Source: a virus
Taxonomy: Duplodnaviria > Heunggongvirae > Uroviricota > Caudoviricetes
Length of the DNA stretch: 64,000 bases
Virus record (IMG/VR): IMGVR_UViG_3300027770_000046
Strand: one strand, 5' to 3'
The position numbers were made by a program, and so were the translations under genes. Positions 1,795-48,000 of this stretch are shown here, in pieces. Position 1 is the stretch's first letter, and the number at the start of each line of letters is the position of its first letter. The notes beneath the pieces are model-generated. The model saw nothing but the letters and a program-made list of their open reading frames with translations, was not told where the DNA came from and did not search any database.

Positions 1795-2081
1795 TTGTCT
1801 GTTTGTTTGTTTAAAAAATCCATGTTTCTTCTTGCATTTGCTGGTAATTTAGTTACTACATCAGGATCTGGAACCAAATCTTCTCCTGCAGTGGGATTAC
1901 CATATACAGAGAGATCATTTTGATCAACAGTTCTAAGCTGTCCTGTGTTATAAAACCTTACAATAAATTGAGGATTAGAATGAATACTACCTACAATCAT
2001 AAACAATGCCACACCATATCCTAATTGTTTAACTTCTACATCAAATGGATTTAGAATCTCGTGTACTGTTTGGACTATCAT
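1791..2081 (-). CDS. hypothetical protein
   Basis: ORF 1791-2117. An internal Met (MIVQTV...) at about 2081 reduces the overlap with the upstream gene. The ATGA-type 4 nt overlap with the 751-1794 gene suggests coupling. Confidence 0.4.
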   Translation of the reverse strand: MIVQTVHEILNPFDVEVKQLGYGVALFMIVGSIHSNPQFIVRFYNTGQLRTVDQNDLSVYGNPTAGEDLVPDPDVVTKLPANARRNMDFLNKQTDK

Positions 2082-2322
2082 GTCTGTTTTCTTTAAAGTC
2101 TTTAATAATTTGTTCACTCATGGATCTAATCTCCATTGGTACTTGTTTAAACCACCATCTTATCTCCATTTCATATTCACGTCCTTGTTCATCAAGTCCT
2201 CTAGGATTGATTAACCAAAACATGTATTCTGTTTCATTATATGTAACAGAGCCTTCATGCCATATCTCTGTAAAAGATGGCTGTCTGTTAATAGAAACTA
2301 CTACTTGTTCTTCACTACTCAT
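2041..2322 (-). CDS. hypothetical protein (93 aa)
   Basis: ORF in the same orientation with 4 nt overlaps to its neighbours. Confidence 0.4.
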   Translation of the reverse strand: MSSEEQVVVSINRQPSFTEIWHEGSVTYNETEYMFWLINPRGLDEQGREYEMEIRWWFKQVPMEIRSMSEQIIKDFKENRHDSPNSTRDSKSI

Positions 2323-2606
2323 TTTTCTGATATTTTAGTGGGTTCCCAAAGATAGGATAGCAAATGATATGGCTTATCCCCATACTTTGGCTCAGCAATA
2401 TACTGTCTGCCAACACATTTTGTTTTGAGTTCTTCTGGTGTAAGTATCATTGACTTACCTCTGTATTCAATTTCATAGTCTTCTTTCTTTTGAATACATT
2501 CTCTTACATTGTGATCTACTAGATCTGCATGCTTCTTGTTGTTAAGCTTGGTAATTGTCCTTTTCATGTTTATCTGCTTTTGTTTTTTTGTCATGGCATT
2601 TTTCAC
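2319..2606 (-). CDS. hypothetical protein (95 aa)
   Basis: ORF in operon orientation. Its N-terminal part overlaps the HNH gene, so the true start may be an internal Met. Confidence 0.35.
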   Translation of the reverse strand: MKNAMTKKQKQINMKRTITKLNNKKHADLVDHNVRECIQKKEDYEIEYRGKSMILTPEELKTKCVGRQYIAEPKYGDKPYHLLSYLWEPTKISEK

Positions 2607-2967
2607 ATAAGACTTGTAAGTTGTCTACCTCACAGAATAATCTCTCTACAAATCCTGGCAGGTCTTTTGAGCTTCTTAAGCTACCTGCAGCATTAATGTG
2701 GTCAACATTTATTTTCTTCTCTATGAACCAGTTTTTACATACATTGCATTGATACTCAAACTTTTGTCTCTTATTTGTGCCCTTGTACAATCTGCGTGCT
2801 TTAAGCTTGCATTCTGTAATAGGCTTCCAAAATCTAGACTTTTGTCTAAGTGCACTGCGTATAAAGCTCCAAAATGCTGACTCTGTCATGGTCCCATGGC
2901 ATCTTGTTTTACTGACTACCTTTTTAGGTATTTTAGAGATTCTCTTTGTTGCGTTCTTTTTTATCAT
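2542..2967 (-). CDS. HNH endonuclease
   Basis: C-terminal ...VDHINAAGSL...NLQVLCEKCHDKKT matches the HNH beta-beta-alpha-metal core (His, Asn, zinc-ligating Cys/His). Upstream CxxC/CxxxH pairs are also present. 141 aa, free-standing. Confidence 0.7.
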   Translation of the reverse strand: MIKKNATKRISKIPKKVVSKTRCHGTMTESAFWSFIRSALRQKSRFWKPITECKLKARRLYKGTNKRQKFEYQCNVCKNWFIEKKINVDHINAAGSLRSSKDLPGFVERLFCEVDNLQVLCEKCHDKKTKADKHEKDNYQA

Positions 2968-2979
2968 AATATATATAAT

Positions 2980-2999
2980 CCCAGGGTTTTATCCCTGGG
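2980..2999 (-). terminator. intrinsic-terminator-like hairpin downstream of the 3009-4487 gene
   Basis: Perfect 7 bp inverted repeat CCCAGGG-ttttat-CCCTGGG. It is followed on the minus strand by an A/T-rich run (attatatatat) and then the start of the next gene. Confidence 0.45.
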
Positions 3000-3008
3000 A
3001 CTACAAAT

Positions 3009-4487
3009 TTAATCAATTTCTACAATTCTTTTAGATATTTCTTGTTTTATTTCATCAAGACTCTTTACAATTGTATAAACTTCTACAGCAGATAGGGCAG
3101 GGAGATTGAAATCATACTTCTTACGCTCTTCTGTAAATCCTTCTTTAGCCTTCTCAGCTAAGTTATCTAATTCACGTACAGCATAACTCTCATCAAGCTC
3201 TAGTGTATCAAAGTCTAGGTCATGTAAAATCTCTGTTGCTTCATCTGTAGGAACAGTCATAATTGGTAAATACTCATAACATCTACCCTTAGACTCACCA
3301 ATACCTACTACCTTCATTGGGTTAATAAGTACGAGAACGCTTGTATCTCCACATCCTACATAATGAATCTCATCACTAGTAAAATGTAAGCCTGCAGAAC
3401 CACAATCATCAGTATTCCATCTACATTTCTCCATAGGCATACTCACTGGTCTACCAATTCTGATGTCAAATGTCTTTGTATAAGCATCTGTAAATCTATT
3501 CTCTGCTCTATTAGGAAGATCAAGATAAAGCTCAGTTAAGTCACCTATATGTTCACCATATTGACTCTCTTCATGTTTAAAGATGGTACCTGAACCAGAA
3601 CATTCTGGACATTCACCACTATAATCATATTCATCTTCACCATCACATTCACTTTCAGGAATAGATCCTGAACCATCACAGTAGATACATGGCTCTAGTT
3701 CATCAAATATAGATTTAGCAACTAGTTTATATTCTCCATTCTTTAAATACACTAAATAATCAGATGGATTCTTCTTCCACACAGCTTTCACTTTATTGTA
3801 TGCATTGCTTACAAATTGTACAAGCTCTGTACCCCCATGTAATGTAACTACGTTTCTCAAAGCTACAAAGAAGCCCTGTTTAGTGATGCTAAAGCTATTC
3901 TTCTTCAAGAAGTTAAACAACTTGTCTGCAACCTCAGCTCTTGGATTTAAGCAGCACCACATAAAGAATCTATGCAAAGCATTGAATTCATCATTCTTTG
4001 TACCACCATGTTTACCTACCACTTCTAAGAATTCTTCTACTAGTAATGGAGGAAGACTTCTACTAATACCTTTTAAATATAAAGCGTTATTCTTCATCTC
4101 AAATTCCTCAAGGGTAGCTAAGAATTCAGCACCTCGTTGGATGGCCTTAGCTTTCTCATAAGCAGCTTCAGCTTTTCTTCTTTCATCTTTTACTTCCTGT
4201 GTGCTTACAAGATCAAATAGACATGCTTCTGATCTACAGTCTCTAGCAGCATTGAAATCTTCTGATGTTGCTGGAGATTTGGTAATAATATTACCATCAT
4301 TCATTACAATAGTCAATGTATCATTAACCATTTTAATGTTGAGATATGGCTTTTCACCTTGAATAGGAGAAGGGGCTGTCTGCCCCTCCTCATTATCCAA
4401 TTGAATAAAAGCCTGCTCAATTTTGTTTTCTACTACTTTCTCAATTGTGCGTTCAATAGCACTTTTAAACCATTTCAAGCTTAACAT
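3009..4487 (-). CDS. DnaJ-type (CxxCxGxG) zinc-finger protein, function unknown
   Basis: Two canonical DnaJ cysteine-rich-domain repeats, CIYCDGSG and CPECSGSG, separated by an acidic linker. Extra Cys/His clusters (CRWNTDDCG, HYVGCGD). 492 aa. Lies immediately downstream of the GHKL ATPase gene. Confidence 0.5.
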   Translation of the reverse strand: MLSLKWFKSAIERTIEKVVENKIEQAFIQLDNEEGQTAPSPIQGEKPYLNIKMVNDTLTIVMNDGNIITKSPATSEDFNAARDCRSEACLFDLVSTQEVKDERRKAEAAYEKAKAIQRGAEFLATLEEFEMKNNALYLKGISRSLPPLLVEEFLEVVGKHGGTKNDEFNALHRFFMWCCLNPRAEVADKLFNFLKKNSFSITKQGFFVALRNVVTLHGGTELVQFVSNAYNKVKAVWKKNPSDYLVYLKNGEYKLVAKSIFDELEPCIYCDGSGSIPESECDGEDEYDYSGECPECSGSGTIFKHEESQYGEHIGDLTELYLDLPNRAENRFTDAYTKTFDIRIGRPVSMPMEKCRWNTDDCGSAGLHFTSDEIHYVGCGDTSVLVLINPMKVVGIGESKGRCYEYLPIMTVPTDEATEILHDLDFDTLELDESYAVRELDNLAEKAKEGFTEERKKYDFNLPALSAVEVYTIVKSLDEIKQEISKRIVEID

Positions 4488-4498
4488 GTTTTGCTTTT

Positions 4499-6853
4499 TT
4501 AAATTGTTTGTAATTCTTCAATTGTGTCTTGTGTTAACACCTCCTCTAAAGGGGCATCTTCTGTTAGTGTAATTTTATAATGCTCTAGATTCACTCTATG
4601 CTTATGATATTTGAATAAATCAACTATGGCTACCATCATAGCAGAATCCTTTCTAGAATTGCTATAACCCATTGTATCTAATATAGCATCTAAGAACTTT
4701 AGCTTGGTAAACACTTCATTAACCTGCTTGTACACTAAATATGTAGGTTGGTCAAATAAATTGTTTGCTATAGCATGTTCTACAACTGCTTTTTTAGTGT
4801 TATCATCAGCGTAACTTCTGTATTGGCTATTATGATATTCCCACAATGTTTGTAATTTATCTGCTAGATCAACAGATATATCTCTAACTGTACTGATTCT
4901 CTTAAATGTAGCACTATATTTTTCAATCAAATCACTGATTATGAACTCTGTAGCTACTGTTTTAAATGGTCTATTTTTACCTTCCATAAATTTATCTAAT
5001 GTTATCCAGTTATGTAAATCAGCTTTCTGTAAGTTGTCATATGTAGCTTGGGCTACTATTACAAATGTTGCATGTTTATTAAAACAAGACCAAACATTAT
5101 CCATTGTCTTCTTATCAGCCTCTCTAGCATACACATGTAACTCATTTAATTTATGGATGTTTTCCATTTTAAATGTTTTAGGAACAAACTTAGCATATTG
5201 ATCAGATAAATTCACTTCTGTTTTTGTACCCACTTTACCAGAAAATTCACCTTTCAATCTAATTTTCTTAGGACCTTTCACTGCTGCTGTTGCTATGGTT
5301 ACTTTCATTCTCTTAGCTTTCTGAGCATCTTTGAATGATTGTGGTATTTCAATAGCATCTGCATCTATAAAGTCTTTAGAATATAGACCTATTACATATT
5401 GAAACTCTTGGATAAGTTGTCTCCATTGAGTTCTTGGATAGCTACTAAGATCTAAAACAGAATCATAATACTTAGCATAATCTGTTTGACCAGTTTTATT
5501 CCTAAGTTTAAATGGTGTTTTCTTTACAAAATATATATGTTTATTATCTGGTAAAATAGTTCTTAGATAATCTTGTTTACCTTTAGAAAGCTCATTCTCA
5601 TAAATATATACACCACCAAAGTTATAACCTGTTAAGTCTGACATTCTTAAATACTGATGATAGTAACTTTTCATGTTCTGAAACTTACCAGTAAATCTAT
5701 ATTTAAACTTGTATTCAGCCAGGATATACTCTTTTGATTTTACAGCAAGTCTTTCTAAGTTCAACAACTTTATGTTATCTAGTTTAGGCTGTGCTACAGC
5801 TACAGTAGAATGTTGTACAAGATCATCTATACAAACATCTTCATCTGCACCTTTGTACCAGGATTTGATATGCTTACTATTTTGACCATAGAATTCCATA
5901 ATAGCTTTGATATCACTTTGTGTAGTGATGGCATCATTGAACTTATCCATAAACACATTAGCCACTGTAACTATCTTCTTTAGAATAGTTTCCTTAGCTT
6001 CTTTAGTATATCTAATAGCCTCTCTGTTTGGTGTAGGAAATAATCCATCACTAAGACTAAAGCGTAAAGCCATCTTTATATGTATCCTATCAATGCCAAG
6101 TTTTTCCCAGTCAATAGGATAACTAACATTGTCTAGACACAAATGCATATCATTATTCATAGCTATTTGAGAATATTGAAAATGTTCAGCTCTATGTATT
6201 ATAAAATCATTAGGAACATTATAGCTACCCATTGGTTCTACATCAAAATAAACACTGTCAAAATAAGCTAATTGCTCTTTAATCTTGCTGTGAAATGAAT
6301 ATCTATCAGACCAATCCACTGGAACAATAACTTTTACACCATTGCTTTCTTTAGTTGATTGCTCATACAAAAGATCAATACTGTTTGTATCTTCTCCTTC
6401 ATACATCATGTATTTACGCTCTATACCATCTTTTCTACATACAAAGTAGAAACTAGAGCTATATGCTAATGGAGCCTTGAAACCAAGACCCATCATACCT
6501 AATTCTGTATTGCTATCACGCTTGGTTGATTTACCATACTTACTAATGATGTTACGTACATCATCTGCATCTAGGCCAATACCAAAGTCTTCAACAGCAA
6601 ACTCATATGTATCTGCCTTATCGTTTCTCTTAAATGAAACAATGATAGGCTTGTCACTCCCAGCTCTTCTATGACTATCTAGTGCATTAGATGCACATTC
6701 TCTGACAGTAGAGCCTATTGAATCTGAATATAGATTCTTACTTAACATCTGCATCAGGACCTGAGCAGAATCTAAGTCTAGTGACATTTTCACAGTTTCC
6801 TGTGTACTTCCTTCTTCGAGGATGTGTGATTCTGTTTGTTTTTCTAAAATCAT
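4499..6853 (-). CDS. Hsp90/HtpG-like GHKL (Bergerat-fold) ATPase domain protein (784 aa)
   Basis: N-terminal block ...LYSDSIGSTVRECASNALDS... aligns to the Hsp90 N-box (..[21 protein letters not shown]..). G1 box VEDFGIGLD (DxGxG) and G2 box GMMGLGFKA (GxxGxGF) are present. I found no toprim or transducer motif, so it is not a type II topoisomerase. Confidence 0.7.
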   Translation of the reverse strand: MILEKQTESHILEEGSTQETVKMSLDLDSAQVLMQMLSKNLYSDSIGSTVRECASNALDSHRRAGSDKPIIVSFKRNDKADTYEFAVEDFGIGLDADDVRNIISKYGKSTKRDSNTELGMMGLGFKAPLAYSSSFYFVCRKDGIERKYMMYEGEDTNSIDLLYEQSTKESNGVKVIVPVDWSDRYSFHSKIKEQLAYFDSVYFDVEPMGSYNVPNDFIIHRAEHFQYSQIAMNNDMHLCLDNVSYPIDWEKLGIDRIHIKMALRFSLSDGLFPTPNREAIRYTKEAKETILKKIVTVANVFMDKFNDAITTQSDIKAIMEFYGQNSKHIKSWYKGADEDVCIDDLVQHSTVAVAQPKLDNIKLLNLERLAVKSKEYILAEYKFKYRFTGKFQNMKSYYHQYLRMSDLTGYNFGGVYIYENELSKGKQDYLRTILPDNKHIYFVKKTPFKLRNKTGQTDYAKYYDSVLDLSSYPRTQWRQLIQEFQYVIGLYSKDFIDADAIEIPQSFKDAQKAKRMKVTIATAAVKGPKKIRLKGEFSGKVGTKTEVNLSDQYAKFVPKTFKMENIHKLNELHVYAREADKKTMDNVWSCFNKHATFVIVAQATYDNLQKADLHNWITLDKFMEGKNRPFKTVATEFIISDLIEKYSATFKRISTVRDISVDLADKLQTLWEYHNSQYRSYADDNTKKAVVEHAIANNLFDQPTYLVYKQVNEVFTKLKFLDAILDTMGYSNSRKDSAMMVAIVDLFKYHKHRVNLEHYKITLTEDAPLEEVLTQDTIEELQTI

Positions 6854-6857
6854 TGTG

Positions 6858-7220
6858 TTAGTAGTTTACTATAATGTTAAATTCTCTTAACACTTCTTTA
6901 TCTGTTAAAAGTCTTTCTATAGTTTCTTGGTCTGTAATGTTTTCTCTGTTTAATTTAAGAATTCTTGTAGCACTTGGGCTATTAACAAAGCTTTTGCTCA
7001 TTTGAGAAATTGTAAGTGGTTTCATTGGTTTATCACCTTTCCAGTTCTTTAACTTTTCTTCATGCCAATCTCTAGCTGCTGTAGCAGAACCAGGCCAAAG
7101 ATATTGAACTGTTCCTCCTTGTCCTCTTCCAATATAAATACCAATACTCATGTAGCTACTACTAGCCACTGCTATTAAATCTCCTTTGTGGATATCTCCA
7201 CCATGTAATACTGTATACAT
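6858..7220 (-). CDS. hypothetical protein (120 aa)
   Basis: ORF in operon orientation. Confidence 0.5.
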   Translation of the reverse strand: MYTVLHGGDIHKGDLIAVASSSYMSIGIYIGRGQGGTVQYLWPGSATAARDWHEEKLKNWKGDKPMKPLTISQMSKSFVNSPSATRILKLNRENITDQETIERLLTDKEVLREFNIIVNY

Positions 7221-7230
7221 AATTGTGTTT

Positions 7231-7947
7231 TTAAAAGGGTGTGTCTAACATCCAATCTATCTGTAGATTGTTGTTTTCCTTTAATATTTTGTTAATTTTT
7301 GTAAATGTTCCTTCTGTGTCCCATTCAGTTTGTTTATAAGACGCACTGGCTGGATGACTCAATGTGAAATGCCATGTAAATGGTGCCACATATTTCTCAT
7401 ATTTAGAAGCATCTTTACCTAGAAACAATATAGGTGTTCCTGTTGGTGCTAAGACTTCCTCAAATAGATATTTAGTAAATGGTTCCCACAAATCAATGTG
7501 AGAGCCTGCTTTATTAATCTCTGTAGTGAGAGCAGCGTTGTACATCAATACACCTTGTTGTGCCAAGAAAGATACATCTGCTGGTCTTTCACATGTCACG
7601 CATAATCCATTGTGTATCTCTTTTTCAACACCATCATAAAACTTTATTAGAGAAGGTTGTAATATGCCTGTTGTAGAACAGCCCATCAATAGGCCATCTG
7701 CTACATACTGTCCATTCTTTATAGAATGATATGGACACATGCCCACCATAACCAACTTCAGGTCATCATATGATGTCTCAGAGAAGCATCTATAAACATT
7801 CTGAGAGAGAGGAGCAATCTTCTTGCCCCTCTGACTTTCAGCTTTGAGATATTTATAGATGTTATCACATGCTTCGCTTTCAATAAAAGGCTGCATAAAT
7901 CTATGCCAAGAAGGATGAAAATGATCTTTAAATTTCTCCCAATTCAT
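7231..7947 (-). CDS. uracil-DNA glycosylase (family 1-like)
   Basis: VMVGMCPYHS matches the UDG water-activating motif GQDPYH. LMYNAALTTE matches LLLNxxLTV. The C-terminal SHPASASY matches HPSPLSA. The annotated ORF extends to 8022, but a Met at 7945-7947 sits 1 nt after the upstream gene's stop and is the more likely start. Confidence 0.65.
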   Translation of the reverse strand: MNWEKFKDHFHPSWHRFMQPFIESEACDNIYKYLKAESQRGKKIAPLSQNVYRCFSETSYDDLKLVMVGMCPYHSIKNGQYVADGLLMGCSTTGILQPSLIKFYDGVEKEIHNGLCVTCERPADVSFLAQQGVLMYNAALTTEINKAGSHIDLWEPFTKYLFEEVLAPTGTPILFLGKDASKYEKYVAPFTWHFTLSHPASASYKQTEWDTEGTFTKINKILKENNNLQIDWMLDTPF

Positions 7948-7948
7948 G

Positions 7949-8710
7949 TTAAAATATTGATAATTGACTAAATGTTGCTTCTTCTGCTTCCCATGGAGCT
8001 GATTGATCATATACATAATCATTGAAGAACTTATGTGCTTTGATGTGACTCTCCATCCATTGAGAAGGATGAGTTTCTTTCATAGCAAATGTTGTATAAT
8101 TGTACAACTCCCATAAGCTATCTTTAGCATTATAATCATGTGTAGGAGCTTTTAACTCTTTACCAATTATGCTTAATTGTGTAGATGTAATGAAATGTTC
8201 TTCTAGCATCATTCTACCAACTAACTCAGCTTTGGTACGCTTAGTTATTTGCACTTGTTTCATTTGTTCTCTTTGCTTTTGCATAGTAGTAAATGCTTCA
8301 CCTGCACCTTTGATGTAATCAACGATGGCACCTGGTGTAAAGTCTTGTATGTCACCTTTATGTCTTTTCTTAAAGGCACCAAAGTCTCCTGATACACAAC
8401 CATTAGAGCATATCATAATTCTTGTACCAATAGCAAACTTCAAGCTCATACTTCTGTCATAGCTATTCTGCCAACCAATTTGCAACTGCATCTCGCTGTC
8501 TGCAACATTGCTGATAGAAAATCTACCATTAGCAACATTACCATCTCTAGCTGCAGAATAAGTTTCTTTGTCTAGGATAAATCCTGCTTTCTCAATACTG
8601 TTTAGTGTAAGGTCAATCAATGATGAATGACTCACTGGCTTATATGTACGTGTTTGTACAGGAACTGATGCATTTATAATCAATTCCTTTGTGGTGTTAA
8701 ATGTGTCCAT
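7949..8710 (-). CDS. hypothetical protein (253 aa)
   Basis: ORF in operon orientation with a 1 nt overlap to the primase-like gene. Confidence 0.5.
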   Translation of the reverse strand: MDTFNTTKELIINASVPVQTRTYKPVSHSSLIDLTLNSIEKAGFILDKETYSAARDGNVANGRFSISNVADSEMQLQIGWQNSYDRSMSLKFAIGTRIMICSNGCVSGDFGAFKKRHKGDIQDFTPGAIVDYIKGAGEAFTTMQKQREQMKQVQITKRTKAELVGRMMLEEHFITSTQLSIIGKELKAPTHDYNAKDSLWELYNYTTFAMKETHPSQWMESHIKAHKFFNDYVYDQSAPWEAEEATFSQLSIF

Positions 8711-9714
8711 TATAACAGGTTTTTACTTTTTAAATAATCTTTTATTGCTTGTAATCCATGGGCTTTTGCAAGGTCTGCCCAATCTTTAATACCCTCTGCT
8801 AGATACTGACGTGGGACGTTAGTATAATCAAAATCAAACATCTTTGTAATCTGTACAGAATTCTGTACACCTACATCATCAGCATCAAAGCTAAGGATTT
8901 GTCTATCAGAGTTTGCTTTTAGATACTCTACATTCTCATGTGAGAAACATCCAAGTCCTTCATTCTGGACAGCACAGCTGCATGGGAATATCTTCTTCAT
9001 CACCATAAAGTCTTTCTTACTCTTGTTGATGAATGCTACGCTGCAGTCTTTGATATTCTCTTTACCATCCATTGCTGTGATAGGAACATTATTAGGCATC
9101 CACTTATGCTTCTTATCAGCATATGGCCTATATATCTTCCAATACTGTCCTTCATAAAGGTACCCAAACCTGAGCTCGTTTTCTTCTAATGGGAATCTTT
9201 GCTTGTTAAGATAGAGTTCTTTAATGGAATATACGTTGTTATCTCTAAGGTCTTGTAGATCCTGGTGATACTCTGCCCAATACTCAAGTTCTCTATTAGT
9301 GAACTTTCTAGTCTTGACTTGAATAAGGGAATATCTCTTCTCTAGATGGGGCTGTTTATATTCAGCTATAATCTTCTTATAATCTTCTGTCATCACTCCT
9401 GTAGAAAGACCAAGACCAAAATCTTTGTCAATCATCTTCAGAGTTTCACTCATAGTGAGAAGATTATGCATCATTTGAACAAAGTTAAAACAGTCACCAC
9501 GTTTACTACCATCAGCATAGTCTATAAATAGAAGATAGCCCATCTTATTACCTATCATGAATGATGGATTGTTCTCATGTCTAAATGGAGAATATGTCAC
9601 TCTATTAAGCTTCCAATCTTGATTAGGCATGTAAAATCTAAAGATGTCATACTCTGATATCCTGCTTAGAATAGCCTCCATGGATAGTTTTGTTTTTCTT
9701 ACTCCATTAATCAT
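8710..9714 (-). CDS. DnaG-like primase (degenerate zinc-binding region plus toprim-like DxD)
   Basis: N-terminus ...SPFRHENNPSFMIGNKMGYLLFIDYADGSKRGDCFNFV parallels the DnaG zinc-ribbon region (CPFHxExTPSF...YHCFGCGxxGD), but most of the Cys are replaced. A later ILSFDADDVG resembles the toprim DxD motif. It sits in the replication module next to the helicases. Confidence 0.5.
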   Translation of the reverse strand: MINGVRKTKLSMEAILSRISEYDIFRFYMPNQDWKLNRVTYSPFRHENNPSFMIGNKMGYLLFIDYADGSKRGDCFNFVQMMHNLLTMSETLKMIDKDFGLGLSTGVMTEDYKKIIAEYKQPHLEKRYSLIQVKTRKFTNRELEYWAEYHQDLQDLRDNNVYSIKELYLNKQRFPLEENELRFGYLYEGQYWKIYRPYADKKHKWMPNNVPITAMDGKENIKDCSVAFINKSKKDFMVMKKIFPCSCAVQNEGLGCFSHENVEYLKANSDRQILSFDADDVGVQNSVQITKMFDFDYTNVPRQYLAEGIKDWADLAKAHGLQAIKDYLKSKNLL

Positions 9715-22302: not shown

Positions 22303-22723
22303 AGGAATGGTGGTTTTTGTTTTGGTGCTTATGACCTGCACACTTTTTGTTAATTGATTTGTCAACATAGGGGGGATACCCCCACATTGCTGATGATAGG
22401 GAGGGTCTGAATAGGTAGTACCCTCTCCTCCCATACATACAAAGGGGGTGGGGGGGCTATATAAAATTTTGTGTTCTTAGCTAGGGATAGTTCCATATGG
22501 AACGTCAAGGGATAGCTTGACTGTGGGGGATGTTTAGTCAAGCTATAGCTTTACATAATGTGTCTTATTATACCCATAAGCATATAGTTTGGTCTTTATA
22601 AGGGACATTATATCTTAGGGCATATAAAAATAAATTTGGTGGGTAAGAATATTTACCTGTATCTTTGGGGGGGATTTAGGGGGGGCCCTGCTAATACCTC
22701 CTCATTAAACAAAGCTTAGATAT
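22303..22723. promoter_or_regulatory. divergent strand-switch control region (probable bidirectional promoters/operators, possible origin)
   Basis: About 420 bp non-coding between diverging genes. Perfect palindromes TTCCATATGGAA (22491-22502) and AAGCTATAGCTT (22540-22551). Inverted repeat AGCTTGACT-N13-AGTCAAGCT (22514-22544). Direct repeats GGGATAG. G-tracts at 22370-22375, 22444-22456 and GGGGGGGATTTAGGGGGGGCCC at 22667-22688. A TAAATTTG Bacteroidota -7-like element near 22628-22635. Confidence 0.5.
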
Positions 22724-22969
22724 ATGGTAGTATTAAATGTGTTGTTGACAATAGTGGCTGTCCTTATGATAGCTGTAGTGATATGGGGGTTTGCCAATTT
22801 TGAAGAATGGGAATTTGGTATAGAGTTTCTCCCTAAGGATTACAATAGTTTTGAACTAGGGGTGTCTAATAGAAACTACGTTACAGACGATGGTGGATTG
22901 GAGCAAGAGCTTAGAATAGGCTTGCTTATATTCAGTGTTATTTTCCTGTTTAGGAGATTTGGTGCATAA
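22724..22969 (+). CDS. small membrane protein (81 aa), first gene of the plus-strand arm
   Basis: N-terminal and C-terminal hydrophobic helices (VVLNVLLTIVAVLMIAVVIWGF; IGLLIFSVIFLF). Confidence 0.5.
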   Translation: MVVLNVLLTIVAVLMIAVVIWGFANFEEWEFGIEFLPKDYNSFELGVSNRNYVTDDGGLEQELRIGLLIFSVIFLFRRFGA

Positions 22970-23047
22970 TATAGCATTAAGTTTTATAATAACTAAATTA
23001 GTTATTTGAAGATCAATGGAATATACATACCTTTGTCCTAACTAATT

Positions 23048-24582: not shown

Positions 24583-24901
24583 GAAAACTACATATGTAAA
24601 TACAGAGCTTGAATGGGCTGAGTCACAACTCGTTTCATGGAAAGCTTATGTGAATGCTAACCCACTACATGAATTGAAAGATAGGATTGAGTGGAAACCT
24701 ACAGCTAAAGGAGGAATGTTACCAATGGTGATAGCCTCTATAGAAGCTCAAGGTAAATTTGTCCAAGAGACAATGAAGAATTATTTAGCATTAATAGAGG
24801 TGGTTGATAAGCTAAGAAACATGGAAGAAGCAAAGGTGGAAGTGAGAGGTAAGGGTGAGTTATCAGGAGCTGCTGCTGAGTTCTTAGCAAATAGAAAATA
24901 A
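24569..24901 (+). CDS. hypothetical protein (110 aa), possible small terminase subunit by position only
   Basis: Immediately upstream of TerL with a 1 nt overlap. No recognisable motif. Confidence 0.35.
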   Translation: MATIKKTTYVNTELEWAESQLVSWKAYVNANPLHELKDRIEWKPTAKGGMLPMVIASIEAQGKFVQETMKNYLALIEVVDKLRNMEEAKVEVRGKGELSGAAAEFLANRK

Positions 24902-26940
24902 TGGAACTACAAAGTATAGACTACAAAGACTGGTTTATAAATCAGAAGCGTATTCCTGATAAAGAGTCTCAGGAATGTAAACCATTCTTTGACTTTCACA
25001 GAGAGTTATGCTTAAATGGAGCTATGATGGGGGGTACATACATTAACCCCTTTTTATATTGGCACCTTAACATATGGCATACAGAAGTAGATATAATAGA
25101 TGATTATGGGAGGATTGCACAGAAATATGCCAATCCCCTATTGAGAGATAATGAATGGCTTGTGACGAACGAAATTGACAGAGCTCAACAAGAAAAGAGG
25201 GGCTTAGTCATTCTAGGTATTAGACGTTTTGCCAAGTCTGTTCTTGAAGCATCCTATATTGCATGGGGTGCGACCTTTGATGAAAACAGTCAGAATATCA
25301 TAGCAGGCTTAAATGCCCCAGATATAAAACTGATTACTGATAAGATTGACAAAGGATTGAATTTCATTCCTGAGTATTGGAGATGGCAGAGAATTGAGGA
25401 CAACTGGAAGAACCAAGTGACTCTAGGTATAAAGACCAAGTCTGGTGAACGTATCCCATTCTCTTCCATTCTAATACGTAACCTTGATGAAGGTAATAAT
25501 GAGGAAGCAATTGCAGGTACAAAACCACGTAAATTAATTATAGATGAAATTGGTAAAGGAAATTTCCTTAGAGGCTTACAGGCAGCTATTCCTGGTTTCA
25601 CTACACCCTATGGCTGGGGATGTAGCCCCATACTTACTGGGACTGGTGGTGACATGAAGAAATTCATGGATGCTAAAAGCTTGATGTTTGACGTAGATAA
25701 CTTTAATTTCCTTACATATAACAATGCTAAAGATGATAAACGTATACATGGTTTATTCATCTCACATAAGTATAGGATGGAGGCAAAGGAAGATTCTACA
25801 TTAGGAGCATATTTAAATATATCAGGTAAATCTGATTTGCATAATGTTAAAATGCTTGTAAGTAATGAAGAGAAGGCTACAGAAATTACTAATAGAGATT
25901 TAGAAAGACTTAAGAAAGCTGGTGATCGTATAGCCTATCTAAAAGAAAAGATGTACTATCCTCAGGAAGTGGATGATATCTTCTTGAATGAGGATACAAA
26001 TATATTTGATATTGAGAGTGCTAAGAGACAGAAAGCTAGATTGTTACAACAAGAAAGAACAGGAACTCCTGTCGTATTGTTTAATGATGGAGAGAAGATA
26101 GCTCATGAGTTTACAGATAAACTACCCATCTCTAACTTCCCTCTAAAGAACTCAGACCTAAAAGAAGCACCTATAGTTATATATGAATTCCCTATAGATA
26201 ATCCACCTTATGGATTGTATGTAGCAGGAGTCGATCCATATAGACAAGGTAAGTCTGCATATTCAACTTCACTTGGATCTGTATACATATATAAGAGGAT
26301 GCATGAAATTAGTGGTGAGAAATATCAAGATATGTTCGTAGCTTCGTATTGTGCAAGACCTGATAAGAAAGAAACTTGGGAAGAACAAGCTAGACTTCTT
26401 ATAAAGTATTATAATGCACGAGCTCTTTGTGAGAATGATGATATATCCTTTATTGAATATATGAAGAGTAAAGGAGATGCTCATTATCTAGAAAAACAAC
26501 CTGAATGGTTAAAAGAGATTGTACCAAACACCACTGTAAAAAGAGACTTTGGTATACATCGTTCAGCTGCAAAGATAATTGACTATCTTCACACTTGTTT
26601 AAAGAAGTATATGGAAGCTGCAATCTTTAAAGAGACAAATGAAGCAGGTGAAGTGATAAGAGAAGTACTAGGTGTAAGTAAGATATTTGATCCTGTATTA
26701 CTTGAAGAGATTATTCAATATAATGATTCAGGTAACTTTGATAGAATTGTGGCTGCAGAGTTAGCCATAGCACAGGCTTTAAAGATGGACCCAATTATGG
26801 GTAGGATAGGTGGAACATCAGATGAAAGAGTTGCTTCTATGTTTAAGAAGAGGAAAGGAAACATACTCTTCACTGAATCTAGAAATAACATGTTTGGACA
26901 ATCAAAAAATAAATATAAACGCAATAAATTGTTTTCATAA
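24901..26940 (+). CDS. terL: terminase large subunit
   Basis: Walker A-like GIRRFAKS(VLEAS), Walker B KLIIDEIG, and a C-terminal nuclease-type acidic motif VAGVDPYRQGKS. 679 aa. Immediately followed by the portal-sized gene. Confidence 0.75.
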   Translation: MELQSIDYKDWFINQKRIPDKESQECKPFFDFHRELCLNGAMMGGTYINPFLYWHLNIWHTEVDIIDDYGRIAQKYANPLLRDNEWLVTNEIDRAQQEKRGLVILGIRRFAKSVLEASYIAWGATFDENSQNIIAGLNAPDIKLITDKIDKGLNFIPEYWRWQRIEDNWKNQVTLGIKTKSGERIPFSSILIRNLDEGNNEEAIAGTKPRKLIIDEIGKGNFLRGLQAAIPGFTTPYGWGCSPILTGTGGDMKKFMDAKSLMFDVDNFNFLTYNNAKDDKRIHGLFISHKYRMEAKEDSTLGAYLNISGKSDLHNVKMLVSNEEKATEITNRDLERLKKAGDRIAYLKEKMYYPQEVDDIFLNEDTNIFDIESAKRQKARLLQQERTGTPVVLFNDGEKIAHEFTDKLPISNFPLKNSDLKEAPIVIYEFPIDNPPYGLYVAGVDPYRQGKSAYSTSLGSVYIYKRMHEISGEKYQDMFVASYCARPDKKETWEEQARLLIKYYNARALCENDDISFIEYMKSKGDAHYLEKQPEWLKEIVPNTTVKRDFGIHRSAAKIIDYLHTCLKKYMEAAIFKETNEAGEVIREVLGVSKIFDPVLLEEIIQYNDSGNFDRIVAAELAIAQALKMDPIMGRIGGTSDERVASMFKKRKGNILFTESRNNMFGQSKNKYKRNKLFS

Positions 26941-38270: not shown

Positions 38271-40031
38271 ATGGCTTGCAATCCTGGAGATCCTTGTTAC
38301 AATGCTTACTATCATCCTAATGAAAACTGTAGTTCAGTTCCTTGTGAAACAGTATCAGGTCTTGTTACATATAATGGACCCAACCTTCCTTGTTCAGGAA
38401 TTCACACTGGAGATAACTTAAACTGTGCTCTATCAAAAATAGATGACGCTCTTTGCAATGGTGTTGTTGGTCTTAATGGTACCTCTGGAACTTCTGGTTC
38501 TAGTGGTATAACAGGAAGCTCTGGAACATCTGGAAGTTCAGGTGCTACAGGTTCATCTGGAACCTCTGGTTCATCTGGTAGCTCAGGTAGTAACGGTGCC
38601 GCTGGTGCTGCTGGTAGTAGTGGTACCTCTGGATCTAATGGTACGTCTGGAAGTTCTGGTAGAGAAGGTTCTAATGGTACTTCAGGTTCTGGTGGTCTTT
38701 CTGGAACTGCTGGTACATCTGGTTCTTCTGGTCTTTCTGGAAGTTCAGGAAGTTCTGCAACTTCAGGTACAGATGGTAGCTCTGGTACCACAGGTACATC
38801 AGGTCGTGATGCTACTGCTGGTACTTCAGGTCAAGATGCAACCTCTGGTACTTCTGGTTCTACTGGTACTACTGGTACATCTGGAACATCTGCGTCTAGT
38901 GGTACAAATGGTACTTCAGCTTCTTCAGGTACAGCTGGTTTAGATGGAGATAGATATTTAACATCTTCTGTTACATCTTTATTAATAGGAACTGGTACTA
39001 GAACATTAACTGTTGGTACAGGATTAGCTTATAGTGTTGCACAGACAGTCATCATAGTATATGATGTAAGTAATACAATGCAAGGATCTGTTACCTCTTA
39101 CAATAGTGGTACAGGTGTTATGGTGGTTAACGTTACCACTACAGTGGGTGCAGGAACATATGCAGCTTGGGCTGTAAACTTATTTGGAGCTGCTGGTGGT
39201 AATGGAACAAGTGGTACTTCAGGTTCAACTGGTACTTCTGCAACAGCAGGAACAAGTGGATCTAGTGCTACATCAGGAACATCTGCAAGCTCTGGTTCAT
39301 CAGGTACATCTGCAAGTTCAGGAAGCTCAGGTTCTTCAGCTACAGCAGGTACATCAGCTAGTTCTGGTACATCTGCTTCTAGTGGAACAAGTACAGGAAC
39401 AGCTGGCACATCAGCATCAGCTGGTACTTCTGGTGCTGCTGGTACTTCTGGTGCTGCTGGTCCCACTGGCCCTCAAGGTCCACAAGGAGCTACTGGTCCA
39501 CAAGGTCCTACAGGAGGTCCTGGTCCAACTGGACCACAGGGAGCTACAGGACCTCAAGGAGCAACAGGAGGACCTGGTCCTACTGGTCCTCAAGGTGCCC
39601 AAGGTCCCCAAGGAGCAACTGGCCCTACTGGCCCTACTGGCCCTGGATTTACATCTATCTCTCCAGCAACTGCAGGAGCAATAGTTATATGTACTAATGC
39701 AAACTCTGGATATACAAACTCAACTGTATATGTAAGTGGTAATTCAATATATGCAGATTCTTTCTTCCAAAACTCTGACTTAAGACTTAAAGATATAATT
39801 ACAGCTATTCCATCAAACAATGTAGAAACTGTAGCATTTACTTGGAAAGATGAAGCAAAAGATAATAAAACTCATTGGGGATATATTGCACAAGAAGTAC
39901 AGAATGTATTACCAGATGCTGTAGAAGAAAAAGAAGATGGTTTCTTAGTAGTGGATTATACACAGGTACATAGCTGGAAGATTGCTCAATTAGAAAAACG
40001 TATTTCTGAATTAGAAGCTAAATTGAAATAA
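38271..40031 (+). CDS. collagen-like tail fibre with C-terminal intramolecular chaperone (peptidase S74-like) domain
   Basis: Long Ser/Thr-rich Gly-X-Y tracts ([13 protein letters not shown]...), then canonical collagen triplets ([28 protein letters not shown]...). C-terminal ...SDLRLKDI...[17 protein letters not shown] resembles the auto-cleaving chaperone domain of endosialidase-type fibres (Ser-Lys dyad SDxxLK). Confidence 0.7.
38480..39650 (+). repeat. highly repetitive 9 bp-periodic (GGT-NNN-NNN) collagen-like coding repeats
   Basis: Visible tandem ggtacttctggt/ggaagctct... units. They generate the spurious antisense and alternative-frame ORFs 38402-38791, 38542-38943, 39098-39466, 39184-39684, 39417-39611 and 39590-39820. 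Confidence 0.6.
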
Positions 40032-44120: not shown

Positions 44121-45077
44121 ATGGCATACTATTACAGATACAACTTTATCTCTCCTGAGCCAATCTATTCAATTGTTAAAGAAGAGTTAAAATCCTACTT
44201 TGATACAGGAGCAGTTGATGATTTAATGTTCCCCACTTATTTAGACAAGTGTCTACAAAAGATGGGTAGATCAAGTTATGTTATTGCTGAACAGACATTA
44301 GATATTTCTGGATATGAAGCTAGACTTCCTGACAACTTCTTTGCTGTTAGAGAAGCCTGGATGTGTACAGAGATTCCTCAGCTTCCCTATCAGACAGCTA
44401 ACTCATTCTATTCTCAGGCAGCTAGCCAAACAACTATACAAGTTTCTCCTGTTATTAGTGGTGGAGTACCATGTACAAATCCACAATGTACAACAGGATG
44501 TCCTACGTGTATGCCTGACATCATCCAAGCTGTATATAAAACCAATCAACAGATAGCTAGAGGTATAAGAAAAGAGTATTTATTAAAACCAGGCAATATA
44601 TCTTGCCAAGGTAAATGTGATGTAAGTTATACAGATGCTTGGCAGTTTTATACAAATGCACCCCCTGTGCACGAGTTCACTCCAGGAAGTGCTGGTTATG
44701 ATAGCTTTGATATTAGAGATAATAAGTTTGTCACAAACTTCAGCTGTGGTATTGTTCATATGATTTTCTATGCTACAGACTATGATTGTGTAGGGAATCA
44801 ATTGATTCCTGATAACTATCGTATAAGAGAATATGTAGAAGCCTTTATTAAATATAAAGTTTTTGAAACCTTATCTAACCAAATCAATGATGAGACATTC
44901 AACCAAATACAAGCTAAGTTAGTTTACTATAAGCAACTTTCAGAAGAAGCCTTTATTATGGCTTACACTGAGATTAAGAAACAAGATGTATGGACTAAGC
45001 AAAGAAGAGTAAGAAATGATTTACAACGCTTTGCACAATATGAATTACCAAACAGAAGCTCAAGATATGGCAGATAA
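44121..45077 (+). CDS. hypothetical protein (318 aa)
   Basis: ORF in the late operon. Cys cluster CTNPQCTTGCPTC. Confidence 0.5.
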   Translation: MAYYYRYNFISPEPIYSIVKEELKSYFDTGAVDDLMFPTYLDKCLQKMGRSSYVIAEQTLDISGYEARLPDNFFAVREAWMCTEIPQLPYQTANSFYSQAASQTTIQVSPVISGGVPCTNPQCTTGCPTCMPDIIQAVYKTNQQIARGIRKEYLLKPGNISCQGKCDVSYTDAWQFYTNAPPVHEFTPGSAGYDSFDIRDNKFVTNFSCGIVHMIFYATDYDCVGNQLIPDNYRIREYVEAFIKYKVFETLSNQINDETFNQIQAKLVYYKQLSEEAFIMAYTEIKKQDVWTKQRRVRNDLQRFAQYELPNRSSRYGR

Positions 45078-48000
45078 CCAAGAAGGACAATCTAACATAA
45101 GACAAGAGTATAATCTTGGCAGAGTTGGACTAGATATGGATTCTTCTGTAAACCAAATACAGAAGGGTAAACTTTCTTATGCCCTAAATGGAGCATTAGA
45201 AAACTTTGATGCTAATTCTGTAAGTTATCAAAATGAGCCAAGTAATGAAATTTGTTTAGAGTTTCCTGCAGGATATCATTTAATTGGAACTCATTTCATT
45301 CAAGAGAAAAACAAACACATATTCTTCTTAGCTAATCCTGAAACAGGAGGAAGTGAAATTGGATATATGGATAATAATGATTGTGTATATCATACACTAT
45401 GTACAGAATACCCTGATTTAGAAATCACTGTATGTGCTAACTCTGTATGCTTAAACTTTGATATAAACTATCCAATTCATAAGTCTGTACATAAGATTAC
45501 AAACTGTACCACTGAGGTATATTGGACTGATGGATTGAATCCAAGAAGATATATAAACATTGAACAAGTTCCCTATATTTCAACTTATGTGGGTGATTCA
45601 AGTTGTGATCCAATTGTCACTCCTGTACTTGACTGTAATAAGTTAAAAGTACAACCTAACTTCTCTATTCCTAGCATAGATATTACTGGTACAGCTGTAG
45701 GTGGAGATTTACAAGCAGGTACATATCAGTTTGCTGTTCAATATTGTAATGCTTCAGGAGATGGATATACATCCTATTATTCTGTAACTAATCCCACATC
45801 TATTGCAAATACAGAGATAACTACTCCTGATTTTCAATACTCTGTAGGAAAGTCTATATTGTTAAGTATTGGTAATGTAGATATTACAGGATACTTCCAA
45901 TATTTTAATTTAGCTGTTATTAAGACTATTAATAATGGTACCAGTGTAGAACTTGTAGGAACTTTTAAGATCCAAGACAAAGTAACAACAACCACCTATT
46001 CAGGTCAAAACCAAACACAAATACCTTTAAGCTTAGGTGATATATTAGAGAAGTTCCCTTATTATGATATTGCACAAGATGTTACAAGTGTACAAGACTA
46101 TATAGTTTGGGACAATCTTACTTCTATTGATAGAATTAACTATCAATCAATTGCTAGTAGAATAACATTAGAATGGGAAACTTATAAGTTACCAGCAGGT
46201 AATAGCTATGCAGATCCTTTCTATACAGCTAATTTAAGAGGATATCTAAGAGATGAGGTATATGCATTCGAGATAGTCTTTTTACTAGATAATGGTAAAC
46301 AAACAGATGGCTTTCATATTCCTGGTAGAGTTAAAAATGCTCAGGAGTTATCTCAGCCAGATGTAACTACAGCTAATGCAGATTACATAGGAGATGGAGC
46401 TCCTCAACCTTATTGGAAAATATATAACACTGCCACTGTATCCACTACATATCCTGTTTCTAGCACTCAAAATATAGGACAAGCATATCCATATCAATCT
46501 GGAGAATTTGCCTATTGGGAAGCTCAAGATGAAGAATATCCTTGTAATGTAGATGTGTGGGGAGACCTTGCTGGTGAGAAAATTAGACATCACAAATTTC
46601 CTGATGTATTAGTTTCTCCTTACTTTGAGACTCCTCCTATTACATATGTAGGTGGTCAGATAGAACCAGTGATGCAAACTTCTAATGCCATCTATCCAAT
46701 AGGTGTAAAAATAGATGTACAACAAGTAGCGTTCTTAATTCAAACATCTACTTTAACAACTGAAGAAAAAGCTTCAATTGTTGGATTTAAAATAGTAAGA
46801 GGTAATAGAAGTGCAAACAAATCTATTATTGCTAAAGGTATATTGAGGAATGTAGGCAAGTATACTAGACAAGGTACAGACTATTACTATCCTAATTATC
46901 CATATAATGATCTTGATAAAGATCCATTCTTACTTGAGAAGAGCAATTCTTACATGTCTCAATGTGATACTTTCCAAGTAACAGCTACAGCTAATGGTGC
47001 ATTACAATATACAGATTGTTATACAGGCACTGTATCAAGTAAAGATTTTACTACAGCTACCACTGAAATATGTTCTCTTACACTTCCTGTTGTAAATACA
47101 GGAGCAGCTACATTTAAAAATATTACATCTAGTACTTATATAATCTCTTCAAACTATAAATGTGTAGTTACTCCAAGACCTGAATTTACTTATGTAGATC
47201 CTATAACTTTAGCAAATCAAACTATCACTGTACCATTTAATACATCAGTGACAATTAATTCAATAGGTCCTCCTACATTTGTAACAGGATGTAATCGTTA
47301 CACTATAGTGGAAAGTAGTAAAGTAAATATTAATTGTTTTCCAAATAACTTAGATGGATTTAGTAGTATTGAATCTAAATACAGACAGGTATTTAATTCA
47401 CCAGAAACTTCTTTTGGACAACCTACATTAGGTAATGTTCTTAAATTAGAAAGTGTATTGTTTGGTGGTGGAAGAGCTCATTTTGTTGAGGTAATGAAGC
47501 ATTCTATGTACAAGCTTCTCACCAGACAAACTCAAATAGATGCCTTAAACTCTAGCAAGAAGATAGCTGACCTAGGAGGATTTAGTGCTACAGCAATGTT
47601 TACAGCCTATCAATCTTATCTACAAATCTACCTAAATGGTATTAGTAGAAAGAACTTTGCACAATCATTTAACTCCATCTCTAGCTATGACTATAATGCA
47701 GATATACAGAATGCTGCTGCTAATCCTCTAACTGGTAATATAGGTATTAAACAAAGACAACTTGATAAGTGTCAGTATGTATTCCCAGGTGTACAGAACG
47801 TAGGTGATAATCATGATCTTAATAACTGGAATAGAGAGTCTTCAATATATACTAAAACTATTGAAACTAGAACTGGGGTAGTAAATCCTATTGATCCTTT
47901 ACCTTTTCCAAATCAAACTCCTTCTTTATATATAGCAGGTGTAAGTCAGATATCTGATGATTCAAGATTTACTATTTCTCAAGCAAATAACTGTAGTGCT

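Follow-up and report, generated by a model that had tools for sequence, protein, structure and literature searches.

Two adjacent genes on the minus strand of a tailed-phage contig (IMG/VR virus record IMGVR_UViG_3300027770_000046, Caudoviricetes) raise the question of what a phage does with a GHKL-type ATPase that is encoded directly beside a protein with two cysteine-rich CxxCxGxG repeats. The genes occupy positions 3,009 to 6,853 of the 64,000 nucleotides (nt) that were analysed, and this whole stretch is called the window below. A sequence-only reading, made without database searches, had described the products, of 784 and 492 amino acids (aa), as an unplaced Hsp90-like ATPase and a DnaJ-type zinc-finger protein, had considered their pairing unusual, and had offered a chaperone pair, a DNA-clamp ATPase or an anti-defence/defence module as possible roles. 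From family searches, related loci, structure models and published genetics, the pair is very probably the rIIA-rIIB module of an uncultured tailed phage, with counter-defence as its most likely role by homology. Both open reading frames (ORFs) are present as described:

4499..6853, minus strand: rIIA homologue, 784 aa (ORF), with an N-terminal GHKL ATPase domain followed by a RIIA-specific region of about 600 residues.
3009..4487, minus strand: rIIB homologue, long form, 492 aa (ORF).

Family identity of the 784-aa protein

In PHROGs, the 784-aa protein matched phrog_612, 'RIIA lysis inhibitor', at E = 2.1e-57, with residues 1-734 aligned to positions 1-712 of the 725 in the profile. Six further RII profiles also matched (five labelled RIIA, plus phrog_609), and phrog_612 is likewise the best PHROG of the rIIA products of T4 (E = 9e-250), FelixO1 and Caulobacter phage CcrPW. 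BLASTP aligned the protein with T4 rIIA collinearly from residue 1 (residues 1-294, E = 3e-18), and the window RIIA family was scored against T4 rIIA at 97.8% by hhalign. A tblastn search with the same protein returned 2,645 phage records, and most among the matches listed are annotated rIIA.

Thirteen RIIA homologues, 18-67% identical to the window protein and including those of T4, FelixO1, CcrPW and Sham, were aligned. Residues E52, N56, D59, D89, G91, G93, S109, K111, G119, G122, G124, G172, Y245, R277 and E278 were invariant. The GHKL motifs quoted in the sequence-only reading (YS-x7-RE-x2-SNAxD, DxGxG and GxxGxGF) are present exactly as given, and their invariance across these proteins argues that they did not arise by chance. 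A second block conserved throughout RIIA lies beyond the ATP-binding motifs:

6020..6121, minus strand: second RIIA-wide conserved block, Y245-P-I-D … P-T-P-N-R277-E278-A (Y245, R277 and E278 invariant in the 13 RIIA).

The T4 rIIA counterpart of this block reads YPID … APSREA. The T4 protein thus has the same PHROG, the GHKL motifs and the second block (YPID … P-x-REA) in common with window RIIA, and is 725 aa long against 784 aa in the window. By these profile and motif matches, the 784-aa protein is RIIA. It was accordingly moved from an unplaced Hsp90-like ATPase to a non-Hsp90 GHKL family with a known phage role (phrog_612, T4 rIIA), a placement that the sequence-only reading had named as one that would refute its call.

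The ATP-binding domain of RIIA

The features of the ATP-binding domain were located as follows:

6314..6781, minus strand: Bergerat/GHKL ATP-binding domain of RIIA, about residues 25-180 (Pfam, PDB profile matches, hhalign against HtpG).
6677..6700, minus strand: GHKL motif I, E52-x3-N56-x2-D59, the predicted catalytic base and Mg-ATP ligand (invariant in the 13 RIIA).
6575..6589, minus strand: GHKL G1 box, D89-F-G-I-G93 (D89, G91 and G93 invariant).
6479..6499, minus strand: GHKL G2 box, G119-MM-G-L-G-F125 (G119, G122 and G124 invariant; site of an intron in relatives, described below).

Residues just before and within motif I read Y42-S43-x7-R51-E52-x2-S55-N56-A57-x-D59-S60. As judged from the alignment, the residues needed for Mg-ATP binding and hydrolysis are all intact, and the machinery appears to be under strong selection, because the motif residues are invariant among 13 divergent RIIA proteins.

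Pfam scored residues 46-149 at 26.2 bits for HATPase_c (cut-off 26.4) and at 25.8 bits for HATPase_c_3 (cut-off 25), the latter being matched by both window RIIA and T4 rIIA. No HSP90 family, Toprim, DNA-binding or recognised transducer domain was matched in the 784-aa protein by Pfam. The Toprim domain that would mark the ATPase subunit of a type II topoisomerase was thus not recovered, in agreement with the sequence-only reading, which had taken the protein to be a GHKL ATPase and not a topoisomerase subunit. The sole Toprim signal in the neighbourhood, a weak one, belongs to the primase gene at 8710..9714.

When the single sequence was searched against solved structures, topoisomerase VI subunit B (Topo VI-B; E = 0.003) matched best, together with MORC2, and Hsp90 proteins were absent from the matches. 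With the 13-sequence RIIA profile, Topo VI-B was again the best match to the ATP motifs in PDB (E = 1.6e-12, motifs I to G2, 83 profile positions), and the Hsp90 N-domains followed (TRAP1 7e-10, HtpG 1e-8, Grp94 1e-6, Hsp90-alpha about 1e-5). The Hsp90-family alignments are longer than that of Topo VI-B and take in the helix before motif I. Comparison by hhalign gave 95.4% for E. coli HtpG (HtpG residues 15-180 of 624) and 83.2% for MutL, the latter over 219 columns and into the second MutL domain, to MutL residue 257. The best NCBIfam models were 'HSP90 family protein' at 31 bits (cut-off 455) and the sacsin ATP-binding domain at 29 bits (cut-off 50).

The resemblance to the Hsp90 N-domain that had first drawn attention to this gene is therefore upheld in part. 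The profile matches to TRAP1 and HtpG are real, and the Bergerat fold together with the LYS…RE..SNA.D helix is common to RIIA, the Hsp90 N-domains (HtpG, TRAP1, Grp94, Hsp90-alpha) and sacsin. On these profiles, however, the likeness is a property of the whole RIIA family, T4 rIIA included; it is limited to about 150 residues, and Topo VI-B scores better. No counterpart of the middle (client-binding) or C-terminal dimerisation domain of Hsp90 was recovered, the likeness lying far under the family cut-offs, and by its profile matches RIIA is not an Hsp90. Nor was a Toprim, transducer, CW or S5-fold domain, as in Topo VI-B, MORC or MutL, demonstrated in window RIIA.

Identity and fold of the 492-aa protein

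BLASTP of the 492-aa protein against T4 rIIB returned two collinear blocks (E = 5e-5 and 4e-6), with query residues 181-213 aligned to T4 residues 185-217 and query residues 332-406 to T4 residues 221-301; T4 rIIB is continuous where the window protein carries about 115 extra residues. The 82-sequence RIIB family profile was then matched to T4 rIIB by hhalign with a probability of 99.5% (E = 8.8e-23, T4 residues 106-304). Three PHROGs labelled 'RIIB' (609, 36818 and 11221) matched with E-values from 2e-15 to 5e-7, and phrog_609 takes in T4 rIIB as well. For two distant relatives (P0413, P0409), Pfam family PF26926, Phage_T4_rIIB, is among the precomputed annotations.

When 1.84 billion representative proteins were searched exhaustively, 1,096 RIIB clusters (50% identity) were recovered at E ≤ 1e-3; in most of them the match is split in two and leaves out the cysteine motifs. 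By tblastn against phage records, only four crAss-like records were matched by RIIB, in its C-terminal third. Long-form RIIB is badly under-detected by pairwise methods, and profiles had to be used.

An AlphaFold model of RIIB, built from a diverse 101-sequence alignment, reached a predicted local distance difference test score (pLDDT) of 80.2 and a predicted template modelling score (pTM) of 0.69. Foldseek of this model against the BFVD viral structures gave 30 matches at E ≤ 1e-3, the named ones down to 1e-11. Among the 19 named matches, 16 carry RIIB or a synonym, with one RB43 entry named 'RIIA-RIIB', and the remaining three are two uncharacterised proteins and one labelled 'transposase'. 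The RIIB-named matches come from T4-like, N4-like, Caulobacter, Pseudomonas, Delftia and other phages, with RIIB lengths of 265-644 aa. No solved relative of the fold was found in the structure search with the AlphaFold model.

Along the protein, the following parts were distinguished:

4389..4487, minus strand: N-terminal helix, residues 1-33 (modelled helix 4-33, pLDDT <50).
3840..4232, minus strand: core block A, residues 86-216, equivalent to T4 rIIB 106-219 (hhalign; BLASTP block 181-213; F174, G205 and R211 invariant).
3501..3839, minus strand: expansion of about 113 aa, residues 217-329, not in T4 rIIB and common to the long-form family.
3261..3500, minus strand: core block B, residues 330-409, equivalent to T4 rIIB 220-304 (hhalign; BLASTP 332-406; PHROG RIIB at 328-412).
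3012..3251, minus strand: helical C-terminal extension, residues 413-492 (modelled helices 414-421, 433-440, 443-457 and 467-487).

The N-terminal helix has a moderate hydrophobic moment (0.44-0.52), and W6 and F7 are nearly invariant. Block B holds a G-L-H368 motif; T333, H368, G380 and P390 are invariant, and K400, R402 and E405 nearly so. The alignment with T4 rIIB stops at window residue 409, and the C-terminal extension is conserved within the long-form family. By its profile matches and predicted structure, the 492-aa protein is a long-form RIIB that keeps the RIIB core fold. The label of a DnaJ-type zinc-finger protein was consequently replaced: the partner is RIIB with a knuckle of about 42 aa in a loop, and no J-domain was matched in it.

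Pairing of rIIA and rIIB

Both window proteins were compared by tblastn with 33 related loci, and in 32 of these (25-85% identity) the rIIA gene immediately precedes rIIB and is read in the same direction. In the one exception the contig ends 42 nt before the RIIB gene, so the arrangement holds in all 32 assessable loci. The annotated order in T4, FelixO1 and CcrPW is also rIIA then rIIB. The pairing, which had been supposed unusual, is canonical across very different phages.

Gene order and strand are as in T4 rII ('protector from prophage-induced early lysis' / 'membrane integrity protector'). T4 rIIB has 312 aa against 492 aa in window RIIB, and identities to the T4 proteins are only about 23-24%. 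Relative to T4 rIIB, the window protein has a plain N-terminal helix in place of a helix-turn-helix (HTH), the expansion of about 113 aa, the knuckle, and some 80 additional, helical residues at the C-terminus. The N-terminal HTH is a trait of the T4-type subfamily and not of all RIIB. The same two-gene architecture, with very variable lengths, is found in N4-like, FelixO1-like and CcrPW-like rII modules.

A possible fusion of the two proteins was also considered. The BFVD entry Q56C47 of RB43, 'RIIA-RIIB', is 1,049 aa long, and phrog_609 spans both proteins. In Citrobacter phage CfP1 (L042, KX245890.1 1-6640), two tandem coding sequences of 749 aa are followed by one of 299 aa, all annotated 'rIIb protein', and the second 749-aa coding sequence is the one matched by the N-terminus of window RIIA. 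The RB43 'RIIA-RIIB' entry may be an annotation artefact, its 1,049 aa being about the length of the 749-aa and 299-aa genes together.

The CxxCxGxG knuckle of RIIB

The two CxxCxGxG repeats reported for the 492-aa protein were confirmed, and lie in an insertion within the expansion:

3555..3716, minus strand: knuckle insertion, residues 258-311, in a beta-hairpin loop (length comparison, hhalign insert state, model).
3666..3689, minus strand: first CxxCxGxG, C267-IYC-DGSG (C267 and C270 in 45/45, G272 in 42/45, G274 in 44/45 motif-bearing relatives).
3588..3611, minus strand: second CxxCxGxG, C293-PEC-SGSG (C293 and C296 in 45/45, G298 in 42/45, G300 in 43/45).

Among the 45 motif-bearing relatives, the acidic linker that joins the motifs differs both in length and in sequence. 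The knuckle is flanked on either side by conserved long-form consensus (LVxFISxxYxKxKxWKK … GNLxxLYxxLP). The stretch equivalent to residues 256-312 has a median of 54 residues in the 45 motif-bearing sequences against 12 in those without the motif, and in the hhalign comparison with T4 rIIB the cysteine segment is treated as an insert state. Modelled pLDDT was 82-91 in the knuckle and 62 in the acidic linker.

The distribution of the motifs is restricted. They occur in two of the 107 full-length representatives at 50% identity (105 are without them) and in 43 of 120 diverse clusters at 90% identity; in the 101-sequence alignment, every motif-bearing member is at least 50% identical to window RIIB. 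A single origin of the knuckle was not upheld, since the smallest neighbour-joining clade with all 45 motif-bearing sequences also holds 24 without two CxxC motifs; either loss or gain was repeated, or the tree is unreliable. The expectation that the adjacent zinc-finger gene would be conserved in relatives was borne out for the gene, adjacent in 32/32 loci, and not for the zinc finger, absent in 105/107.

On Pfam, the 492-aa protein scored 24.2 bits for Anti-TRAP (cut-off 32) and 19.5 bits for DnaJ_CXXCXGXG (cut-off 32.7), both sub-threshold. Foldseek gave a weak local match of the knuckle to BSD2, a DnaJ-type zinc-finger protein (probability 0.51). The CxxCxGxG pair and four invariant cysteines are common to window RIIB and the DnaJ cysteine-rich domain, anti-TRAP and BSD2. 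In the window, however, the module is a loop insertion in a fold unrelated to these proteins; DnaJ has four repeats and two zinc centres, against two repeats and one metal site here, and its J-domain gave no Pfam match in the 492-aa protein.

The four invariant cysteines are enough for one zinc site. Alignment and model together suggest that the knuckle is a selected, clade-specific element of about 42 aa, predicted to form a single zinc site and carried by RIIB on a surface hairpin. It cannot belong to the core mechanism, because most RIIB proteins are without it, and might speculatively serve as a rigid surface add-on that tunes contact of RIIB with a partner or target. It is the one unusual trait of the pair and, in a family known for extreme variability, a minor architectural variant. 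No description of a CxxCxGxG knuckle in RIIB was found in the titles and abstracts of the literature searched.

Function of the module

Pairs of the rII type are widespread and allow phages to evade suicide defences carried by prophages. One such defence, the RexAB abortive-infection system of lambda, kills infected cells via membrane depolarisation. The rII pairs of T4, MM02, EdH4, SUSP1 and N4 have been shown to counter it: in these five phages, of five genera and four subfamilies with less than 40% identity, knock-down of rIIA or rIIB left plating unaffected except on cells that express RexAB, where it was reduced (PMC11879866). In T4, the two genes were likewise depleted of transposon insertions only in the presence of RexAB (bioRxiv 10.1101/2025.11.20.689424). 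RIIB was found to counteract RexAB and is itself the trigger of a CARD–gasdermin defence; expressed alone, it was toxic to E. coli (PMC10312443). A published account assigns RIIA to counter-defence, with a GHKL domain at the N-terminus and a variable domain at the C-terminus (PMC7824862), and rIIB has been listed as a specific transcription factor (Iyer et al. 2021). The molecular mechanism of rII against RexAB was described as unclear in 2025 (PMC11879866).

By homology, the pair in the window would most probably neutralise a Rex-like or other abortive-infection or suicide defence of its own host. RIIA would probably act as an ATP-gated switch or clamp, as do Hsp90, MutL, MORC and Topo VI-B among GHKL enzymes generally, and RIIB is probably its obligate partner.

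Several observations weigh against this assignment. Identity to T4 rIIA is 23% (residues 1-294), and the pairwise alignment ends near residue 300, the C-terminal 450 residues being spanned by the PHROG profile only. The AlphaFold model of RIIA, made from 33 sequences 82-95% identical, is of low confidence (mean pLDDT 44, pTM 0.27). For RIIB, identity to T4 is about 24% in the profile alignment, and because identity to the studied proteins is low in both cases, function was transferred by family and not by orthology. T4 rIIB residues 7-50 match HTH_7, HTH_28 and HTH_29, but no HTH was matched in window RIIB by Pfam and the hhalign alignment begins at T4 residue 106; the DNA or transcription role proposed for T4 rIIB may therefore not carry over. 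A natural RIIA–RIIB fusion, considered as evidence for interaction, was dropped as ambiguous, since the CfP1 region consists of abutting 749-aa and 299-aa genes. No demonstrated ATPase activity was found for any RIIA in the literature searched.

Alternative explanations

The pair might instead act on DNA in the manner of the GHKL machines MORC, MutL and Topo VI-B, with RIIA clamping or manipulating DNA within the replication and recombination apparatus and RIIB as its DNA-binding or regulatory subunit. Topo VI-B as the best solved-structure match, MORC2 in the single-sequence search, the MutL alignment that reaches a second domain (83% in hhalign), the position of the pair within a replication block, and the N-terminal HTH of T4 rIIB with its listing as a transcription factor (Iyer et al. 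2021) all point that way. Against this, Pfam found no Toprim, DNA-binding or recognised transducer domain, the Topo VI-B match covers motifs I to G2 only, window RIIB is without an HTH, and published rII genes are dispensable unless RexAB is present (PMC11879866; bioRxiv 10.1101/2025.11.20.689424), so that this reading is unlikely. Hsp90 and MORC/MutL were compared by sequence profiles, and not by fold, because of the pLDDT of 44 of the RIIA model. A chaperone pair, in which an Hsp90-like ATPase and a DnaJ-like zinc-finger co-chaperone would fold or remodel clients, was judged quite improbable. It draws on some 110-150 residues of likeness between the RIIA ATP domain and Hsp90 N-domains, among them the helix ahead of motif I, on the HtpG score, on HSP90 and then sacsin as best NCBIfam models, and on a CxxCxGxG pair of the DnaJ/anti-TRAP/BSD2 type, modules that bind client proteins. 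Yet HtpG is aligned no further than residue 180 of its 624, NCBIfam gives 31 bits where 455 are required, Pfam matched no HSP90 family, and every Hsp90 is outscored by Topo VI-B. The partner gave no Pfam match to a J-domain or DnaJ C-terminal domain and has two of the four DnaJ repeats, with sub-cut-off scores. The 105 of 107 representative relatives without the knuckle still pair with RIIA, and the knuckle therefore cannot define the function of the pair. Both proteins, moreover, belong to RIIA and RIIB, families with a known phenotype that depends on a defence system. Among the roles that had been offered, anti-defence is the known role of rII pairs, and the chaperone pair fails on domain content and on the patchy distribution of the knuckle.

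RIIB could also be an enzyme whose ADP-ribosyltransferase-like core modifies a host or defence protein under regulation by RIIA, which was considered very improbable. Least credible of all is a defence or superinfection-exclusion module directed against other phages in place of counter-defence. GHKL ATPases of the MORC/paraMORC type do occur in bacterial defence systems, and the toxicity of RIIB alone (PMC10312443) would fit such a module. No PADLOC defence model was matched by either protein, however, the family sits in the early/replication block of lytic-type phage genomes, and the published genetics favour counter-defence (PMC11879866, PMC10312443, bioRxiv 10.1101/2025.11.20.689424).

With the rIIA-rIIB assignment, the locus holds a phage gene pair that is among the longest known and that current annotation tools (PHROGs) label correctly. 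What is contributed is a large uncultured long-form RIIB family, a confident RIIB model, invariant residues to guide mutagenesis of both proteins, and the placement of the RIIA ATP-binding domain nearest to Topo VI-B and Hsp90. The knuckle, as a natural variant on a surface loop, may mark an interaction surface. The main value lies in the corrected label and in a resource for the unsolved rII mechanism.

Transcription unit and genomic setting

The two genes lie on the minus strand with rIIB downstream, separated by 11 non-coding nt, and rIIB is not preceded by a Shine-Dalgarno sequence. Directly after the rIIB stop a hairpin was located:

2974..3005, minus strand: terminator-like hairpin with a 13-bp stem and 6 G-C pairs (consensus match only).

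Its tail is not a clean T-run, and the hairpin could be a terminator or an RNA-processing site. Because of the 11-nt spacing, the common strand and the strong hairpin after the second gene, rIIA and rIIB are probably co-transcribed. A promoter scan found 30 sites, with 26 ± 6 expected by chance, and hence no excess. Neither protein has a membrane-spanning hydrophobic segment (maximum 19-residue Kyte-Doolittle means 0.89 and 1.19).

The setting within a replication/early module had been recognised correctly. On the same strand are genes for exonuclease, an HNH endonuclease, a uracil-DNA glycosylase (UDG)-like protein, DUF932, primase, a Sak4-like annealing protein, two helicases and DNA polymerase; the pair is flanked by the UDG-like and primase genes on one side and by exonuclease genes on the other. 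A plus-strand structural block with terminase, portal, major head and tail-fibre genes starts at about 23 kb.

The HNH endonuclease gene (2542..2967, minus strand, 141 aa; phrog_1985, E = 1.7e-24) lies directly downstream of the hairpin and may be a free-standing homing endonuclease beside the rII module. In the related locus L003 a 131-aa gene is found at this place. On the other side, a 120-aa ORF (6858..7220, minus strand) ends 4 nt upstream of rIIA; Pfam, PHROGs, NCBIfam and PADLOC each gave nothing for it. Similarly sized ORFs stand at the equivalent position in L003 (120 aa) and in a second relative, L020 (119 aa, with a visibly similar N-terminus), and the ORF could be a third member of the rII transcription unit. 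Further upstream, the UDG-like ORF (7231..8022, minus strand, 263 aa) overlaps the DUF932 ORF (7949..8710, minus strand) by 74 nt. Its homologue in L003 has 239 aa, from which the true start in the window is probably an internal Met near residue 26.

A group I intron in rIIA of relatives

In three relatives (L019, L020 and L035), rIIA is interrupted at the same point in the G2 box, after G122 (…ELGMMG | LGFKAP…). The homologous site in the window is 6488/6489, where rIIA is uninterrupted. The L019 insertion (632-932, 301 nt) is ORF-less and keeps the last 25 codons of an endonuclease ORF; its final nucleotide is G, and that of the 5' exon is U. It matched the Rfam group I intron model RF00028 over its full length (63.6 bits, gathering threshold 50; E = 4.8e-16), and its fold was far more stable than that of shuffled sequence (z = -5.75). 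In Rfam, this intron was missed in a joint search of the three loci and was clear when the small region was searched alone. The insertions in L020 (about 3020-3993) and L035 (about 2008-3002) are of about 1 kb and encode a LAGLIDADG homing endonuclease. By these features, the G2 box of rIIA in relatives is the site of a mobile group I intron.

Phage lineage and remainder of the window

The lineage is uncultured. Megablast of 20 kb of the window against GenBank phages gave no match, and the RIIB gene was absent from 185,579 reference bacterial and archaeal genomes scanned. Related contigs reach about 100-118 kb. The large terminase (24901..26940, plus strand) is nearest to those of Leptolyngbya phage Lbo-JY46 (38%), Cellulophaga phages phi17:2 and phi4:1 (33%) and crAss-like phages (27%). 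The window contains no tRNA genes and gave no Rfam matches.

A virion protein gene (45016..51147, plus strand, 2,043 aa) matched phrog_37948, 'virion structural protein', at E = 1.6e-94, and is followed by three large genes (919-1,107 aa), none with a PHROG match. Between the diverging minus-strand early and plus-strand structural blocks lies a 613-nt gap (22435..23047), which coincides with the turn of the cumulative GC skew and holds an imperfect inverted repeat of 19 nt (22504-22554). This gap is a candidate for an origin region or for a divergent promoter. The tail-fibre gene (38271..40031, plus strand, 586 aa) carries collagen-like Gly-X-Y repeats with a 9-nt period at 38567-39644, which cause a local rise in GC content (0.43 against about 0.34) and spurious overlapping ORFs on both strands.

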